Positions 12,231-43,634 of a stretch of 64,000 nt of DNA are shown here, piece by piece. Position numbers and translations under genes: made by a program. Under the pieces are notes generated by a model. The model saw nothing but the letters and a program-made list of their open reading frames with translations. It had not been told where the DNA came from and did no database searches. Every line of letters begins with the position of its first letter. Within the stretch, counting starts at the first letter, position 1. Source of the stretch: an uncultured Gammaproteobacteria bacterium (lineage in GTDB: Bacteria; Patescibacteriota; Patescibacteriia; Magasanikbacterales; UBA922); NCBI GenBank assembly GCA_965231005.1, contig OZ246405.1:949657-1013656 (forward strand). The letters are read 5' to 3'.

Positions 12231-13067
12231 ATGTTAATTAAGGGAAAAAAGCTAGCTGAAGCAATACATGCCAGCACTGCTGAGCATATTGCAAAACTAA
12301 AAAAACAAGGGCTGAATCCAACCCTTGCTGTTGTTTTAGTTGGCGATGATAAACCATCAGAGCGTTACGTACAGAAAAAACAAGAAGCTGCTGAAAAAGT
12401 AGGCCTTACGTTTGAACTTCATAAACTTCCTGCAGATATTTCAAAAGACGATATCATACAAAAAATTGTTGACATTCAAAAAAATAAAGATCTTTCAGGA
12501 CTCATTGTCCAACTTCCTCTTCCTGAGCCACTTTATACAGATGAAGTACTCAATGCGATTGATCCTTCTGTTGATGTGGACTGTCTCACAAACAGTAATC
12601 TTGGAAAACTGGTCATGAAAACAAATATTATCACTCCCCCAACTCCAAATGCTGTTATGACAATTCTTGAAAGCCAGAAGATTGATCTAGCAGGAAAAAA
12701 TGTTACTATCATTGGTGTTGGTGCACTTGTTGGAAAGCCACTTGCAATTATGATGATGAATAAGCGAGCAAGTGTTACAACGTGTAACAGTGCAACTGCT
12801 GATGTGAAGGAAAAATGTTTAAACGCTGACATTATTGTAACAGGAGTTGGAAAACCACATGTTGTTACTGCAGACATGGTCAATCCAAATACAATTGTAA
12901 TAGACACTGGTGTTACTTTTGAAACAGGAAAACTATCTGGTGATGTAGATGTAGAAGATATTGATAAAAAAGGATGCGTTGTCACTCCCACCCCTGGTGG
13001 TGTTGGGCCGTTGACCGTAGCACATTTGCTTCAAAATACTGCAATTTTGGCAGAGCGAAAAGCCTAA
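12231..13067 (+). CDS. folD: bifunctional methylenetetrahydrofolate dehydrogenase/cyclohydrolase
   Basis: 'LAVVLVGDDKPSERYV', 'GKNVTIIGVGALVGKP', 'PTPGGVGPLTVAHLL' typical FolD blocks. Confidence 0.85.
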   Translation: MLIKGKKLAEAIHASTAEHIAKLKKQGLNPTLAVVLVGDDKPSERYVQKKQEAAEKVGLTFELHKLPADISKDDIIQKIVDIQKNKDLSGLIVQLPLPEPLYTDEVLNAIDPSVDVDCLTNSNLGKLVMKTNIITPPTPNAVMTILESQKIDLAGKNVTIIGVGALVGKPLAIMMMNKRASVTTCNSATADVKEKCLNADIIVTGVGKPHVVTADMVNPNTIVIDTGVTFETGKLSGDVDVEDIDKKGCVVTPTPGGVGPLTVAHLLQNTAILAERKA

Positions 13068-13170
13068 ACTTTTATTATTTCAATACAAACTTTGTTGAGG
13101 TAATAAAAGTGTAGACTTTCCTTTGAGAGTAAACACAACCTGGCAAACACCCGACATGTCGGAGGACATC

Positions 13171-13464
13171 ATGCAACAGCCGCACACTGACGCTTCTACC
13201 GAGACGACAACTCACCCTGATGAGGCAGCTTCCCTGACCTTCGCAGACCTGGACGACGGCGAGCACTTCCTGGTCATCAACGATCTCATGGAAGTCATGG
13301 ACACCCCAGACGATGCGATCACGATTTGGCGCAAGCTCGGCCACAACGGCAGGATGTGCCACAAGGCCAATGCTGCTGGCAACTGCGGCGAAGAAGGCCT
13401 GAAGAGCGGCAAGTGCACGTTCCAGACGTTCGACGACAACACTCCGGTGATTCGCACCAGATAG
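13171..13464 (+). CDS. hypothetical small acidic protein (GC-rich island)
   Basis: GGAGG SD 5 nt before ATG 13171; ~60% GC; ORF-track N-terminus trimmed. Confidence 0.35.
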   Translation: MQQPHTDASTETTTHPDEAASLTFADLDDGEHFLVINDLMEVMDTPDDAITIWRKLGHNGRMCHKANAAGNCGEEGLKSGKCTFQTFDDNTPVIRTR

Positions 13465-13480
13465 CCAAGTGGAGGTCGCG

Positions 13481-13714
13481 ATGAGTAGTCCGCTATCTTG
13501 CAGCTGTCTGTGCCATCAAGGTGGCGCCTGTGGCCTTGTCCCCTGTTGTGACCATGCTGGTTTGCGACCTGAACAGATTCGAACTCCTGCTGAGCAAGCG
13601 TTTCTTGCACATGCATTCGAAGTACTTGAGAACCTTCCTGCATCTCGCGAACTTGAGAAACAGGAAGCTGCTGACACAACACACGAGCTTCCTGATGACA
13701 TCATGGTGAACTAG
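13481..13714 (+). CDS. hypothetical small Cys-rich acidic protein (C-x-C-x-C...CC-x-H cluster)
   Basis: GGAGG SD 5 nt before ATG 13481; 'SCSCLCHQGGACGLVPCCDH'; 16 nt after upstream ORF. Confidence 0.35.
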   Translation: MSSPLSCSCLCHQGGACGLVPCCDHAGLRPEQIRTPAEQAFLAHAFEVLENLPASRELEKQEAADTTHELPDDIMVN

Positions 13715-13730
13715 AACAAAGGAGACATTC

Positions 13731-13763
13731 CCGACGACGGCCCTGCACGTACATCGTCGGGGC
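13731..13763. other. GC hairpin CCCGACGA/TCGTCGGG closing the island
   Basis: 8-bp perfect stem, 17-nt loop, no clear T-run. Confidence 0.35.
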
Positions 13764-13797
13764 CAAACAAAAGACACCAATTACTTGGTTTCATCAT

Positions 13798-14775
13798 TTA
13801 GCTGCTCATATGATCCAAAAATTCTTTTAGAAGAGATTCTAGCTCTTCTAGACTCGTCACTCTCACAAGCTTTCCTCGAAACTCTTTAATTCCAGGAATC
13901 TCCTGTCCAATTTTATTTGTTTTAAAATACCATGACAAATGTTTTCGAAACGTGACAATTCCCCGTTCCCCATACTGCTGTGTATGTAATCTTGCATGAC
14001 GCATGACAACATCAACACGCTCTTGCACTGAAACAATATATTCTGGTTCAAGGACTTGCTTAAAAAACCAAGGATTTCCAAGCGCACCACGTGCAATAAG
14101 CACTCCATCACACCCTGTCTGCTCTAATGCTTCTTCTACTTGATGTGGTTGATGAATATCACCATTTGCAATAAACGGAACTGTAGCTATTTCTTTTGCT
14201 TGTCTGATTCGTTCCCAATCACTAACACCACTATATCCCTGTTTTCTTGTTCTCCCATGCATTGTTATTAAATCTGCACCAGCTTCTTCTATAACAGGAA
14301 TAAATGTTTTAAAAGTATCAGGATTATCCCAGCCTAGACGAATCTTTACTGAGAGTGGCGTATCTCCTATTTCCTTTTTCATTGATCTAACAATTGCAGC
14401 TGCACGTTCTGGCTCTTTCATAAGCGCTGCACCATTAAAATTGCTTGTGATTTTATACACAGGGCAACCCATGTTTATATCAATTCCTTCTGGATTTGCA
14501 TGCTCCATGACAATTGCTGCAGCCTTTCCCATTGTTTCTGGATCAGCTCCAAAAATTTGTTGTACAATTGGACGTTCTGACTCAACAAAATCTGTCATGC
14601 CAATTGTCTTTTGATTTTCTCGAATAATAGCTTCTGAACTTACCATTTCACGAAATACAATATCAGCACCACCAATTTGGCGCACAATTTGACAAAATGA
14701 AGAATCTGTCATATCTGCCATTGGTGACAGTGCAAGCATCTTCTTATTTTTAGATAATATGTCGTTGATCCACAT
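13798..14775 (-). CDS. tRNA-dihydrouridine synthase
   Basis: 'LALSPMADMTDSSF', 'MGCP', 'GAALMKEPE', 'NGDI' Dus family blocks; start among M21/M33 of ORF. Confidence 0.7.
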   Translation of the reverse strand: MWINDILSKNKKMLALSPMADMTDSSFCQIVRQIGGADIVFREMVSSEAIIRENQKTIGMTDFVESERPIVQQIFGADPETMGKAAAIVMEHANPEGIDINMGCPVYKITSNFNGAALMKEPERAAAIVRSMKKEIGDTPLSVKIRLGWDNPDTFKTFIPVIEEAGADLITMHGRTRKQGYSGVSDWERIRQAKEIATVPFIANGDIHQPHQVEEALEQTGCDGVLIARGALGNPWFFKQVLEPEYIVSVQERVDVVMRHARLHTQQYGERGIVTFRKHLSWYFKTNKIGQEIPGIKEFRGKLVRVTSLEELESLLKEFLDHMSS

Positions 14776-14879
14776 AGTTGAAGCAATATACCATTGAAAA
14801 GCAGAAAAATCAATGCTTATACAAAAAAACCTCAAAGGAAAGAGCCTTTAAGGCATTTCTAGCTTTGTAAGTCCCTTTT

Positions 14880-22513: not shown

Positions 22514-22665
22514 AGAATAGGTAAATTATGCCTCGCGATTATATCATAAATATCTTTTGCTGTCTAGCATTGACTTTTTGCTTATTCTTGCTAAAATCCA
22601 AATAGATATCTGGTTTTTTGTAATCGGAAATCACCACATCTCGCTCACAGCCAAAGGAGACCTCA

Positions 22666-23145
22666 ATGTCCAAGACCATCCGAATTGCGATCGCATCTGA
22701 CCACGCTGGCGTGGGAGAGAAAGCTGCTGTGATCCGTGCCCTTGGAATCACTCCAAAAACCATCACGCGAGGACCTGACTACGATGTCAAAGACTTTGGT
22801 CCATCAGAACAAGAGGGGCGCGTAGACTACCCGGCATTCGCAGCCAAGGTCGCAAGAGCAGTTGCGGACGGCACGGTTGACCTGGGCATCCTGATCTGCG
22901 GCACTGGCATTGGCATGTCTATCGCAGCCAACAAGTTTCCTGGCATTCGGGCAGCATTGGCTCACAACGCTACGACTGCCAGACTGGCCCGTGAGCACAA
23001 CAACGCCAACGTACTGTGTCTCGGAGCACGCATGCTCGGCAGGGACCTCATCATCGAGTGCGTCCGTGCTTGGCTCGAGGCCGAGTTTGAGGAACGGCAC
23101 CAACACCGGCTGGACATCATCGCTTCGATCGAGGCTGAAATGTAG
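22666..23145 (+). CDS. rpiB: ribose-5-phosphate isomerase B (RpiB/LacAB family), GC-rich actinobacterial-like
   Basis: 'IAIASDHAG', 'GILICGTGIGMSIAANK', 'ALAREHNNANVLCLG', 'RHQHRLDI'; AAAGGAG SD; ~60% GC. Confidence 0.8.
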   Translation: MSKTIRIAIASDHAGVGEKAAVIRALGITPKTITRGPDYDVKDFGPSEQEGRVDYPAFAAKVARAVADGTVDLGILICGTGIGMSIAANKFPGIRAALAHNATTARLAREHNNANVLCLGARMLGRDLIIECVRAWLEAEFEERHQHRLDIIASIEAEM

Positions 23146-23170
23146 GCCCAGATCTGAACACAAGGAGACA

Positions 23171-23230
23171 AAAAAACCGTGACGAACTTCGGCTTTCACG
23201 CTGAACGTACTCACGGTTTTGTCTTTTTTA
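23171..23230 (+). terminator. GC hairpin terminator after rpiB (ACCGTGA...TCACGGT + T-run)
   Basis: aaaaaaACCGTGA...TCACGGttttgtcttttttaa. Confidence 0.5.
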
Positions 23231-27229: not shown

Positions 27230-27408
27230 TTTTCCACACAAATTCTTGCGAATATAATACTATTGCTGTACAGTACTTATTGTATGAATCACATTGTACG
27301 CACAACAACTACAACTACAAAGACTTTCCAACCGGAGAGGTAGTTGTGTTGTAACAAACAATCAATCAACCACCTCTGCCGAGGTGGTTTTGCATTTGGG
27401 GGGACATA

Positions 27409-27606
27409 ATGGTATATCCGGGTACAGACATCAAAATCCAAAAGGGAGATGCAGTCCATCTCGAGGGTGTCGGAGAAGGGACGATTACCTACGTTGCAAG
27501 ACCAACAGACCACATCCTGGTCACAGTCGAGGTGGGAAGCTACCACAACCTCGATGAGGGGCGGATGAGTGGACTCCGGTTCGTGCGTCGCGGAGCCGCT
27601 GCATAG
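27409..27606 (+). CDS. hypothetical 65-aa protein in GC-rich cassette
   Basis: GGGGGG SD 5 nt before ATG; two leader hairpins upstream (27316-27365, 27371-27392); own terminator downstream. Confidence 0.35.
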   Translation: MVYPGTDIKIQKGDAVHLEGVGEGTITYVARPTDHILVTVEVGSYHNLDEGRMSGLRFVRRGAAA

Positions 27607-27637
27607 CACAAGTGAGGGAGAGAACAACAAGGGGGAA

Positions 27638-27679
27638 AGGGATCGAGCTTCTGGCTGGTCCCTCTTCTTTTTTATTTTA
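27638..27679 (+). terminator. intrinsic terminator of the 27.4-kb cassette (GGGATCG...TGGTCCC + TCTTCTTTTTTATTTT)
   Basis: GC stem with long T-run on plus strand. Confidence 0.5.
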
Positions 27680-35267: not shown

Positions 35268-35892
35268 GTGGTGCTGTGTAACAAGCAGAACAATCACTGA
35301 TGTGAGCCCGGTGCTCTTCGGGGCCTGCACGCGCACGTTGGTGATGATGCTGTCGCTCTTTGGGTCTTCCAAGGTTGAAAACCCAGGAGGATTTCCAAGC
35401 AATTGGTCAAAAACCCTTAGCTCGACCCAGTCGAGAGAGCAGGCGGAGGGGCCCTGTAACTGCGCGAAAGTGTGGTTGTGATCAACAAAACATGGTTCTC
35501 CCATCATTACAATGTTTCCCTATTACGCACGAGGACACACACTTTCTAAGCCTCGCGGAACAGGAAACAACGTATAGGAGACGGTTAGACTGATTACCGG
35601 ACGGCTTGTCTGGACGGTTTTCTTGGTTAGTTTCAGCCATTGAGTTGTTGGTCGCCTAGGCAGGGTGAGTAAAGCTGCAGTCTTTGTGAGCCACGTCAAA
35701 GTTATCCTTGAACTCTTTTGCCGGCCCTAGGTTCAACCCAAGGAGCTGAGCAATCTGATCGAGTTGCACACATAGGAAGCTCAGACACGCTCTAGGGGGA
35801 TTGTTGCACAGCACCCCCTTTTCTCTCTCCAAAAGCCCATTTTGGGTAGAGATAATAAAAAAAGCCTTATTACAGGGCTTTTTTTGTATTGA
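35268..35892 (+). ncRNA. unidentified GC-rich structured RNA transcription unit 1 (~620 nt)
   Basis: ~55-60% GC in a ~33% GC genome, no credible ORF, dense local complementarity, ends in AAGCC...GGCTT + T7 terminator 35865-35892. Confidence 0.35.
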
Positions 35893-35908
35893 AGATATTA
35901 TAAAAAAC

Positions 35909-35937
35909 TTGACAAATTTACCCTCTTTCTGTATAAT
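35909..35937 (+). promoter_or_regulatory. perfect consensus promoter TTGACA-17-TATAAT
   Basis: TTGACA 35909-35914, TATAAT 35932-35937; typical of stable-RNA promoters. Confidence 0.6.
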
Positions 35938-35942
35938 ACGTC

Positions 35943-36508
35943 GTTGTTCCTACCAGAGCAAGTAGCTAGTGATAGCACCAGCTGTTATCTCAGCGACAAG
36001 TTTTTTTGCGTTGCGGGGTCGTGATGATCGACCTTAGACTCTCGGCTTGAGATGCAAAGACCTGGGGGTAGAAAACTAAGAGATTTTTGTGCAACACTCT
36101 TAGAAGAGACTACCACATCGCCCCTGGCGAGTAACTCTTTCTGACCGTCTGATGTTGGTCCTAGCAAAACTCTGTGGCGGAGCGACCTCTGTGCCGATGT
36201 GACTCGTGGTGCGGTTGAACAATCCGTCTTGTCTTCTTAAATGTTGTGGTCCTGTTGAAATCAGGTAATCCGAAAGGATGGGGGCGGCCTAGGCTGTCTG
36301 ATTGCACGACATAAGACCGGGCGAGGAATTCTTCCTTGCTGCCATGATGAGCATTGCTGCGCGGAGAGCCGCGGGCGAGCGTGCGTTTCATTTTTTCCAC
36401 CCCTTGGAGATGGAGCGTGCCTCGCCTGCGGCCTTGATTTTTTTCTTTATCTAAAAAGGTAGAGAGAAAAAAGTAAAACATCCTGATGTGCTCAGGATGT
36501 TTTGTTTT
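35943..36508 (+). ncRNA. unidentified GC-rich structured RNA transcription unit 2 (~570 nt); RNase P-like sequence fragments but not confirmable
   Basis: consensus promoter upstream, terminator 36477-36508 downstream, no ORF; 'AUCAGGUAAUCCGAAAGGAUGGGGGCGG' and 'CACGACAUAAGACCGGGC' resemble RNase P P10-P12/P4 strings but spacing is wrong. Confidence 0.35.
36477..36508. terminator. bidirectional intrinsic terminator (AACATCCTGA-tgtgc-TCAGGATGTT + TTTGTTTT)
   Basis: 10-bp stem; serves RNA unit 2 (+) and the MBL gene (-). Confidence 0.65.
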
Positions 36509-41580: not shown

Positions 41581-41686
41581 TGATATCCCCGAACCTTGCA
41601 GTGCGTATTCGTGCGAATACCAACCTTGCTTGGATTCGGGGTGTGGTCCCCTTGTTGAATGTGAATCCCAGGATCGAACCTTTTGA

Positions 41687-42268
41687 TCAGTCTGCGACCA
41701 CGGCCCAGGTGTTCCAGTACTCGAGCGTCTCCTTCGCGTTGGTGCGCACGTCGAACATGTCCCAGTCGTTCACCTCGTTGTTGCCACCGGCGAGGTTGTA
41801 GACCAGTCGGTACGGCGTCAACGCAGCCTTGGGACCGGCGAATGCGAGGACTGCGACGATGACGTGGGTGCAGTCGCTCGCCTTGATCCGCGCTTCTTCC
41901 TCGGGCTCGTCAGCGATGTCCGGATCGTTCAGGTACGCATCACGCGTGTACACCACGCAAGCCAGACCTTCGACTTCGGCAGCCTTGTCTCGACGCAGGA
42001 ACATGCCGGGCTGGCCCCGGTGCGTACGAACCACGTAGTCGTCCGGATCCTTGGACTTATGACCCACACCGGCCGACACCGACGACCACGCAGACTCGGG
42101 CAGATGCACGAAGTGCTGACCTTCTGCACGGTCACCCGACGAGTCATGGGAATCGACCGCGCTGGTCAGTGCAGCCATGAACGAATCGGTGTCGATGACC
42201 TTGGAACCGATCACACCAGTGCTCTTGAAGGCGGTCAGGTCGCCGTAGATCTCAAACTTGATGCTCAT
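41687..42268 (-). CDS. hypothetical protein (GC-rich island, gene 2 of 2)
   Basis: GGGAGG SD, start at second ATG (6-nt spacing); ~60% GC; no recognisable motif. Confidence 0.45.
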   Translation of the reverse strand: MSIKFEIYGDLTAFKSTGVIGSKVIDTDSFMAALTSAVDSHDSSGDRAEGQHFVHLPESAWSSVSAGVGHKSKDPDDYVVRTHRGQPGMFLRRDKAAEVEGLACVVYTRDAYLNDPDIADEPEEEARIKASDCTHVIVAVLAFAGPKAALTPYRLVYNLAGGNNEVNDWDMFDVRTNAKETLEYWNTWAVVAD

Positions 42269-42329
42269 CATGTGCCTCCCGGCGTTGTAATCCAATCGAC
42301 CAGCAAGGTCGAAGGATGTAGAAAATGTG

Positions 42330-42363
42330 GAGAAGAGAAATATTAATCTCTCTTCTCCACACC
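42330..42363. terminator. perfect 12-bp palindrome GTGGAGAAGAGA-n9-TCTCTTCTCCAC between the two island genes
   Basis: probable terminator/operator; short T-run (ATTTTCT) on minus strand. Confidence 0.45.
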
Positions 42364-42594
42364 TTCAAAGTGGGGTCACTTTAAAGAGCGATTGCTTTTC
42401 GTCCTTGTCATATTCTGTTTGGACTTCAGCCATAGGCTGAACAGTTTCCACTGTCATCAGTACTGAATTCATCAGTAGAAGCGATGCGGAATAGATAGCA
42501 TATTCCGCACCCTCCCTTGTTGAATTGTTGTTGTCGTTCTACCCAGTCATGGCTATCATCTGTTGCCAGATCATGACTGTTTGATGAACGATTA

Positions 42595-43317
42595 CTAGCG
42601 CCGTGCGCGGCGATCAGCCCGGTCGAACCGCATCTCGATGGCCTCAGCCTCGATCTCAGCCTGCTGCTGTCTCACTTCCCCGGTCAGATCCCCGTGCGTA
42701 GCGATGTGCAGAGCGAGCATCTGCTCGAGCAGATCGATTTCCTGCTGCGCGCGACTCCACTGGCTCTCTTCCGGAAAGTCATACAGATCCGTGGTCTTGC
42801 ACCTGATCTCGTCGAGAAGCGTCACCTGAAAGGTCCACGGATCGCAGAGCTCGGGGAACTTGCGCGTGTGGCAGACCTTTCGGATGAAATGCCAGATGTG
42901 ATTCAGACGCGAGGGCTTTTCCTCGACGAACGAACCCGCACCCTCGACCACCGAGCACTGCTTGACTTCACCGTCTGCGACCTCGAGGACGAAGTAGGGC
43001 TCACGAGCCTTGCGCCAGCCCGGGCTGTACAGGCCGATGGTCAGCGTGGTGTCAGTTGCACGAACCTGCATGCGACCGCTGGAAGTGGTGTAGCAGAGTG
43101 CGCCTTCACCATCGAGCGTCCACGTTGCCTTGGTCCAGCCGAACTCGCCTTGCGGGGGCTTCTTGTCCTTGCGGGTCTCGACCAGCTTGTGCAGCTCTCC
43201 GATGTTGATGTCCGCAGGACTAACCCCGGGGGGATGACAGGTGTGACGCAGCATCCGCATGATGTACATCACGAGAGCAACGATGTTTTCAAACCGATTC
43301 TTCTTGACATTGGCCAT
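42595..43317 (-). CDS. hypothetical protein (GC-rich island, gene 1 of 2)
   Basis: AAGGAGGT SD 5 nt upstream of ATG 43317 (ORF 42595..43476 trimmed); C-terminal Arg/Glu/Gln-rich helix. Confidence 0.45.
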   Translation of the reverse strand: MANVKKNRFENIVALVMYIMRMLRHTCHPPGVSPADINIGELHKLVETRKDKKPPQGEFGWTKATWTLDGEGALCYTTSSGRMQVRATDTTLTIGLYSPGWRKAREPYFVLEVADGEVKQCSVVEGAGSFVEEKPSRLNHIWHFIRKVCHTRKFPELCDPWTFQVTLLDEIRCKTTDLYDFPEESQWSRAQQEIDLLEQMLALHIATHGDLTGEVRQQQAEIEAEAIEMRFDRADRRARR

Positions 43318-43634
43318 TGTGCACCTCCTTGGTTGTGCGAATGAGCGGCCAAACTCATGCGCTAGTGCGACCATGTTCATTATTGTTAATGGAAATGGTT
43401 GCACTACCAAGGTGGTATAAAAAGAACGGCCTTTGTGTAGAATTTTTTGCCTACACAAGACAACGTAGTCTAGCACAAAAAAAGGCTTTTGTCAAGGGGT
43501 TTTTGGCCTTTTTGGGCTAAAATAAAGGAAAAAAACAATAATTTTAGAACTTTTATGTTTTCTTGATAATAGATTTATTAATATTATTCCTGTACGGTTG
43601 ATATATAGATCCAAAATGTGTTTAATTATATACA

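Follow-up and report, generated by a model that had tools for sequence, protein, structure and literature searches.

What a short GC-rich block of DNA represents between two convergent core genes of an AT-rich bacterium, and whether it carries genes of its own, is the question raised by the spacer between folD and dus on contig OZ246405.1, which was analyzed within a window of 64,000 nucleotides (the whole stretch of DNA considered here, positions 949,657 to 1,013,656 of the contig). Maximal-segment analysis and composition profiles delimited a GC-rich islet of 626 bp at 13139-13764, which has 56.2% G+C compared with 37.2% for the window and whose edges are abrupt in base composition at both 13139 and 13764. 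The best reading is that the islet is a recently acquired, moron-like cassette of orphan genes from an unsampled, GC-rich donor that uses Shine-Dalgarno (SD) signals. That the segment is a foreign insertion is highly probable, and it can be described with moderate confidence as a small, horizontally acquired, GC-rich plus-strand islet at the convergent folD|dus junction in Candidatus Magasanikbacteria. The features that carry this reading are two open reading frames (ORFs), named orfA and orfB, their initiation signals, and the flanking genes:

13139..13764, no strand assigned: GC-rich islet, filling most of the ~730-bp folD-dus spacer
13161..13165, plus strand: SD sequence GGAGG, 5 nt before the orfA ATG
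13171..13464, plus strand: orfA, 97 aa, isoelectric point (pI) 4.7, no homologue found
13471..13475, plus strand: SD sequence GGAGG, 5 nt before the orfB ATG
13481..13714, plus strand: orfB, 77 aa, pI 4.6, no homologue found, weak codon-usage support
13499..13555, plus strand: codons of the orfB Cys/His cluster, C7-x-C9-x-C11-H12-x4-C17-x4-C22-C23-x-H25
12231..13067, plus strand: folD (methylene-tetrahydrofolate dehydrogenase/cyclohydrolase), native flank, Pfam PF00763 and PF02882 (E 1e-32 to 1e-52)
13798..14835, minus strand: dus (tRNA dihydrouridine synthase), native flank, convergent with folD, Pfam PF01207 (E 2e-79)

An earlier note on this DNA had pointed to a GC island holding two small acidic ORFs, and all the elements that it described were found where it had placed them. 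The island is real and sharply bounded, the two ORFs have the lengths given and lie 16 nt apart, both predicted products are acidic, and each GGAGG stands exactly 5 nt from its ATG. The two cysteine-rich peptides that the note quoted, CHKANAAGNCGEEGLKSGKC and SCSCLCHQGGACGLVPCCDH, were correctly read, and the palindrome CCGACATGTCGG that it had noticed over the first SD is present at 13151-13162.

A lineage-specific insertion at the folD|dus junction

The closest genomes are metagenome-assembled genomes of Candidatus Magasanikbacteria, which belong to the Candidate Phyla Radiation (CPR, or Patescibacteria); related loci are labelled here by L numbers. L006, the closest relative found (Dus 82% and FolD 72% identical), shares the gene order of the window, DUF8128-dus-folD. 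The gap between the dus and folD stop codons is 29 bp in L006 and 11 bp in L009, compared with 730 bp in the window, which implies that the spacer is a lineage-specific insertion. In other relatives, the dus|folD junction is occupied by unrelated cargo. For example, L008 has a coiled-coil ORF there and L011 a small membrane ORF, L012, L013, and L015 have genes for glycosyltransferases, L013 also has genes for purine biosynthesis, and L014 (7051-9000) holds a 2-kb island of 52-65% G+C with two SD-led lipoprotein-like ORFs. Since the cargo differs among relatives, this junction is a recurrent insertion site. The loci with varied dus|folD cargo were L008, L011-L016, and L021, and varied cargo was also observed at the DUF8128|dus junction (L013, 5151-6000; L015, 5351-5950). 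The spacers to either side of dus are recurrent insertion hot spots in Magasanikbacteria.

ENA metagenome contigs of project PRJEB17505 have 99.99-100% identity to the window. Both islet junctions recur in independent assemblies of two samples, and the islet is therefore not a chimera. Two other assemblies were observed to break within it (contigs of ERZ930065 stop at 13472 and resume at 13480, and 13501 is the last position of a Logan contig). In the MEGAHIT assembly, the contig ends do not overlap but are separated by 7 nt; the breaks at 13472-13501 therefore seem to reflect a loss of coverage in GC-rich or GGC-rich sequence more probably than strain heterogeneity.

Two sequence similarities were also observed at or near the ends of the islet. 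A 28-nt direct repeat (75% identity) lies at 13146-13173, at the orfA start, and at 13678-13705, near the orfB stop, and both copies end in GACATCATG; in addition, AAACA(C/A)AA is common to the two flanks (13131-13138 and 13765-13772). Both similarities could be due to chance or could be a trace of insertion.

Translation signals and sibling islets

The initiation signals of the two ORFs provide a further indication of foreign origin. In 20,000 dinucleotide shuffles of the islet, two same-strand GGAGG-N4-9-ATG sites, each leading into an ORF of 70 aa or more, occurred together five times, and one such site occurred in 1.1%; the SD-ATG-ORF tandem is not due to chance. Among the native genes of the window, which have AT-rich upstream regions, only one of 48 has an SD core before its first ATG; folD, with 38% G+C and a G+C fraction at third codon positions (GC3) of 0.23, has none. 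Genes that do have an SD core in front are orfA, orfB, rpiB, and two further islet genes (41687-42271 and 42595-43317). As genes in this islet and in its siblings (described below) are SD-led and native genes almost never are, the translation signals of the islet are considered foreign and derived from an SD-using, GC-rich donor. Translation initiation in the host appears to be largely SD-independent, which is consistent with the reported frequent lack of the anti-SD motif in a subgroup of Parcubacteria (PMC9297842).

The sibling islets are found among at least five further GC-rich segments of the window (~334-1214, 22632-23216, 27370-27664, 35302-36433, and 41587-43372), of which the first three and the last have 54-57% G+C and sharp edges. 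No sequence, motif, or repeat common to the GC islets of the window was found. Three of these segments contain SD-led ORFs of high GC3: a strong SD stands before rpiB (AAGGAG), a 194-aa ORF (GGAGG), and a 240-aa ORF (GGAGG), and a 262-aa lipoprotein-like ORF is likewise SD-led and high in third-position GC. In rpiB (22666-23145, plus strand), which is SD-led and has 57% G+C, the 3' end carries a GC-rich hairpin followed by a U-run. Its best non-self match among 5.8 billion protein clusters had 59% identity, with mixed taxa, so that an attempt to infer a common donor through this gene was uninformative. From its sequence, rpiB was probably acquired as a xenologue from a lineage not yet sampled, and the donor of the islet is likewise regarded as unsampled because even this housekeeping-type gene has no relative above 59% identity. 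Apart from rpiB, the sibling-islet proteins tested had no match in Pfam, PHROG, NCBIfam, or PADLOC, and three of them, also searched in IMG/VR and JGI, had no match there.

Coding potential of orfA and orfB

Codon statistics reasonably support orfA as a coding sequence. Its G+C fractions at the three codon positions (GC1/2/3) are 0.56/0.43/0.74, and its positional base profile (G1 0.36, A2 0.35, G2 0.16, C3 0.47) matches those of rpiB and the 194-aa sibling gene at 41687-42271. Under a codon model built from sibling-islet genes, orfA is the best of the six frames (+28.7 bits; 0.29 bits per codon, within the range of the siblings), and under the host codon model it scores -83 bits. The RNA around its start is less structured than shuffles (z +1.8). 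The cysteine and histidine residues of the product are H58, C63, H64, C72, and C82.

The coding support for orfB is weaker. Its GC1/2/3 values are 0.68/0.46/0.38; the first- and second-position profile is more gene-like than those of two overlapping alternative frames, and the only good initiation signal in this stretch is its own. The DNA of the Cys/His cluster is built from repeated CTGT/TGTG, and six cysteines within 18 residues of an ORF occurred in 1.4% of shuffles, so that the cluster is only mildly unusual. The contrast in GC3 between orfA (0.74) and orfB (0.38) suggests that the islet may be composite or that the two ORFs may differ in age, with orfB being the older. In single-sequence AlphaFold2 models, orfA was predicted to have beta strands and one helix, and orfB to have helices at residues 36-50 and 54-62 behind a cysteine-rich N-terminus modelled as disordered, with a predicted local distance difference test (pLDDT) score below 50; both models are too poor for fold searching.

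Homology searches

Searches of orfA, orfB, and the alternative frames against Pfam, PHROGs, NCBIfam, and PADLOC returned noise-level matches only (E 0.055-0.22). In Pfam, neither orfA nor orfB had a match at E<=1; in NCBIfam, orfB had none and orfA had a single noise match (E 0.18, 11 bits against a cutoff of 624). A word-indexed search of the same 5.8 billion protein clusters gave zero matches for either ORF, and a PDB sequence search with both found nothing. Nothing was found by blastn against phage and plasmid genomes, by tblastn of orfB against phages, or by scans of IMG/VR and JGI metagenomes with both ORFs, and tblastn detected no paralogues in the window and in 80 related loci.

Two sets of candidate matches for orfA were rejected. 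A full HMMER search of 1.84 billion representatives gave three matches with E values from 1e-5 to 6e-4, which were dismissed as artefacts: the two inspected are internally repetitive proteins, and all three align in 4-8 short stretches. In tblastn against phages, the N-terminus of a "MazG-like" ORF of a Burkholderia phage (E 0.1, 11/32 identical) was discarded as noise.

Other features of the locus

Four smaller elements lie in or beside the islet:

13059..13119, no strand assigned: AT-rich inverted repeat with 25-nt arms, 84% complementary, just past the folD stop in AT-rich spacer of native type
13151..13162, no strand assigned: perfect palindrome of 12 nt, CCGACATGTCGG, which shares 2 nt with the first SD
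13719..13724, plus strand: orphan SD-like AAGGAG past the orfB stop, read from the sequence, with no start codon behind it
13730..13761, no strand assigned: GC-rich stem-loop (CCCGACGA, 16 nt, TCGTCGGG) at the right islet edge, 16 nt past the orfB stop

The AT-rich inverted repeat is probably the 3' hairpin of folD. A perfect 12-nt palindrome was present in 15% of mononucleotide shuffles, and the palindrome over the first SD is thus not significant; no second copy of its motif was found anywhere in the window. The AAGGAG at 13719-13724 is possibly the stump of a third donor gene. The stem-loop at 13730-13761 has no U-run on the plus strand, and a terminator scan found none. The characterized neighbours of the islet are folD, dus, the DUF8128 protein, secDF, secA, and amine oxidases.

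Another GC-rich segment of the window, 35290-36450 (50% G+C), was observed to have no long ORF, no Rfam match, and no gene called on the one public contig examined. On the plus strand, but not on the minus strand, it folds far beyond shuffles: z is -3.3 over 35290-35900 and -3.6 over 35900-36450, and the centroid is near the minimum free energy structure. It contains a perfect TTGACA-17-TATAAT promoter at ~35908-35937 and hairpin plus U-run terminators near 35860-35895 and 36385-36450. The segment has the look of one or two structured RNAs, each ~500-600 nt long and so far unannotated.

Comparison with known systems

Phage morons, a concept associated with Hendrix and Juhala, are compositionally distinct extra gene units lying between conserved neighbours. 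The islet resembles them in being a small unit of deviant composition between genes that are adjacent in relatives, in its stem-loop end, and in its small orphan proteins; unlike them, it lies outside any prophage, between core genes (its surroundings including folD, dus, secDF, and secA), and orfA and orfB had no significant match in PHROG, phage genomes, or IMG/VR, the best tblastn value being the E of 0.1 for orfA. With regard to the promoter and terminator of a moron, the 3' stem-loop has no U-run and no promoter-like site was found between folD and orfA, CPR promoters being poorly defined. The earlier note had offered a phage moron, an anti-sigma factor with its partner, and a small toxin-antitoxin pair as identities for what it called a two-gene micro-operon. 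The micro-operon description suits the bicistronic look of the plus strand (SD-orfA, 16 nt, SD-orfB, and then a stem-loop), and "moron-like" is the closest of the three suggestions because the unit is foreign to its surroundings, although its phage connection was not supported.

Patescibacteria genomes have been reported to contain many genomic islands (hundreds in CPR genomes), which account for up to 13% of genome length (PMC12455944). The islet shares with these islands an atypical composition, a lineage-specific presence, and a variable junction; it differs from them in being only 0.6 kb long, with two ORFs and no mobility genes, and in being marked by SD signals in an SD-poor host. Its composition and codon usage are atypical and it is absent from the locus in L006 and L009, as expected for a horizontally acquired islet, whereas the collections searched yielded no identifiable donor and no homologues elsewhere. 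As horizontally acquired islets go, it is an ordinary one, best filed as a small islet with orphan genes.

Integron cassettes are also short, with SD-led ORFs, an imperfect 3' palindrome, and, as here, no promoter found. However, no attC core site (GTTRRRY / RYYYAAC) was found on either strand in 13050-13829, the 3' palindrome of the islet spans only ~32 nt, and the islets are dispersed singly and form no array; no integrase turned up in the window, which was not screened for integrases. The orfB product is reminiscent of the metallothioneins SmtA and BmtA in its CxCxC-type spacing, adjacent cysteines, and short length, but it has no Pfam match at E<=1 and only six cysteines, and a 50-residue acidic helical tail follows the cluster.

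Alternative explanations

A known regulatory pair, either a zinc-binding anti-sigma (ZAS) factor with its partner or a type II toxin-antitoxin module, would account for two small tandem genes on the same strand with a 16-nt spacer, for the Cys/His cluster of orfB, and for the palindrome over the first SD as a possible operator. Like RsrA, RslA, and ChrR, orfB would be a small cytoplasmic protein with clustered cysteines and histidine; unlike these ZAS proteins, neither peptide contains HxxxCxxC or matches zf-HC2 (PF13490) or another anti-sigma domain, the orfB cluster has the form CxCxCH...C...CCxH, and no adjacent extracytoplasmic function (ECF) sigma gene, nor any sigma gene among the characterized neighbours, was found. 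No toxin or antitoxin family was detected in Pfam, NCBIfam, or PADLOC at E<=1, where the noise match of orfA noted above was the only hit of any kind, and the acidity of both products is atypical for toxin-antitoxin pairs. The palindrome is not significant either, and this explanation is highly improbable. The real gene might instead lie on the minus strand, and the earlier note had named one such ORF as a finding that would overturn its view. Two candidates were considered:

13212..13682, minus strand: shadow ORF of 156 aa, with only a noise PHROG match (E 0.22) in the family scan
13075..13362, minus strand: antisense ORF of 95 aa, codon-aligned to orfA, with a GTG start

The high third-position GC at 13190-13460 suits the 156-aa ORF as well as orfA; however, it scores only -2.1 and -4.6 bits under the sibling-islet and generic GC-rich CPR codon models, compared with +28.7 and +4.2 for orfA, and it starts with GTG, has no SD, and, with its abundance of S, R, L, and P and its pI of 10.2, resembles a shadow ORF in composition. 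It was judged not to be a gene. The antisense ORF at 13075..13362 is the more serious minus-strand rival, with +22 bits under the sibling-islet model and +19.4 under the generic one, and gene calling on a truncated contig reported it as a partial gene; but it was left uncalled on the intact contig, has neither ATG nor SD, extends 64 nt past the islet through the AT-rich hairpin, and has GC1 above GC3, unlike three of four sibling genes (in rpiB the two are about equal). This ORF was judged unlikely to be a gene. The 3' stem-loop is downstream of the plus-strand ORFs and not of the minus-strand ones, and a minus-strand gene of either kind is very unlikely. GC-rich islands in AT-rich genomes often encode structured RNAs, and the islet, with no annotated gene, might be one of them, the more so as the segment at 35290-36450 folds significantly. 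Against this, the islet has no Rfam match at E<=1, its whole-length fold has a z value of -0.8 for the plus strand and +2.5 for the minus strand, and all interior 150-nt windows lie between -1.5 and +2.4. Only the flanks are structured (plus strand, 150-nt windows: z -3.3 for 13040-13189 and z -3.3 for 13640-13789), giving the order hairpin, two ORFs, hairpin, and low structure near the orfA start between structured flanks suits a translated mRNA; a structured non-coding RNA is thus extremely improbable.

The islet might also be foreign DNA that is inert, captured by illegitimate recombination, perhaps after DNA uptake, with ORFs that are neither expressed nor functional here and with orfB, in particular, possibly never having been a gene. 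Several results favour such debris, and most of them also weigh against the reading as an acquired gene cassette. The codon scores of orfB are below zero with the islet model (-17 bits) and with the host model (-19 bits). Both ORFs are complete orphans, absent from a collection of 15 billion proteins that draws on NCBI and ENA records, and the gene caller behind the ENA record placed no gene in the islet on the intact contig. No promoter-like site was found between folD and orfA and no canonical terminator behind orfB, the recipient barely uses SD signals, and the SD-like stump at 13719-13724, which has no gene, suggests a truncated donor operon. Further points bear on the cassette reading alone: the cysteine cluster of orfB is only mildly improbable (p ~0.014), orfA falls below its codon-aligned antisense frame under the generic GC-rich CPR model (+4.2 compared with +19.4), the structure models are poor (pLDDT 50 for orfA and 57 for orfB), conservation of the reading frames cannot be scored because no homologue was found, and the analysis identified neither a donor nor a mobility gene, a tRNA, or a clear target-site duplication. 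On the other side, neither ORF is interrupted and a perfect GGAGG-N5-ATG opens each of them, in a tandem that appeared in only 5 of 20,000 shuffles, the codon statistics of orfA are sibling-like, and rpiB in a sibling islet, presumably functional, bears the same foreign signals. Inert debris is accordingly rather unlikely, and it is fairly probable that the plus-strand ORFs are real genes here or were formerly so in the donor; that both are functional in this host is possible and, from the sequence, somewhat doubtful.

Proposed model and implications

According to the preferred reading, a recently acquired orphan cassette, 626 bp of foreign DNA is inserted at a junction whose cargo varies among relatives, and the cassette runs in the order SD-orfA, 16 nt, SD-orfB, SD-like stump, and GC-rich stem-loop. 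In the donor, orfA and orfB may have been a co-translated pair encoding small, acidic, soluble, cytoplasmic proteins. The orfB product is predicted to bind metal, most simply zinc, through an N-terminal Cys6His2 cluster ahead of two acidic helices, with the orfA product as its putative partner, and the pair might act as a small accessory or modulator module of the mobile gene pool, in the manner of morons. A further version, which is quite unlikely, is that the islet belongs to an undescribed class of short, GC-rich, SD-led orphan cassettes that end in a stem-loop and are captured repeatedly at intergenic hot spots. The hosts of such cassettes might be AT-rich, largely SD-independent Magasanikbacteria, and capture might follow DNA uptake from a GC-rich host or neighbour; if this were true, orfB would be the first member of a new family of small proteins that bind metal through a Cys6His2 cluster, and it would work with orfA.

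If the ORFs are expressed, two small proteins without known family, one of them with a compact Cys/His cluster, would join the accessory pool of an uncultivated CPR bacterium, raising the question of how an SD-poor host translates SD-led foreign genes. Among the by-products of the analysis, the most useful are the SD sequence as a marker of foreign genes and the folD|dus junction as a place of recurrent insertion. Foreign DNA in this genome is recognizable by its base composition together with the presence of SD sequences, and the SD marker and the folD|dus site provide a simple way to catalogue genes recently acquired by Patescibacteria.

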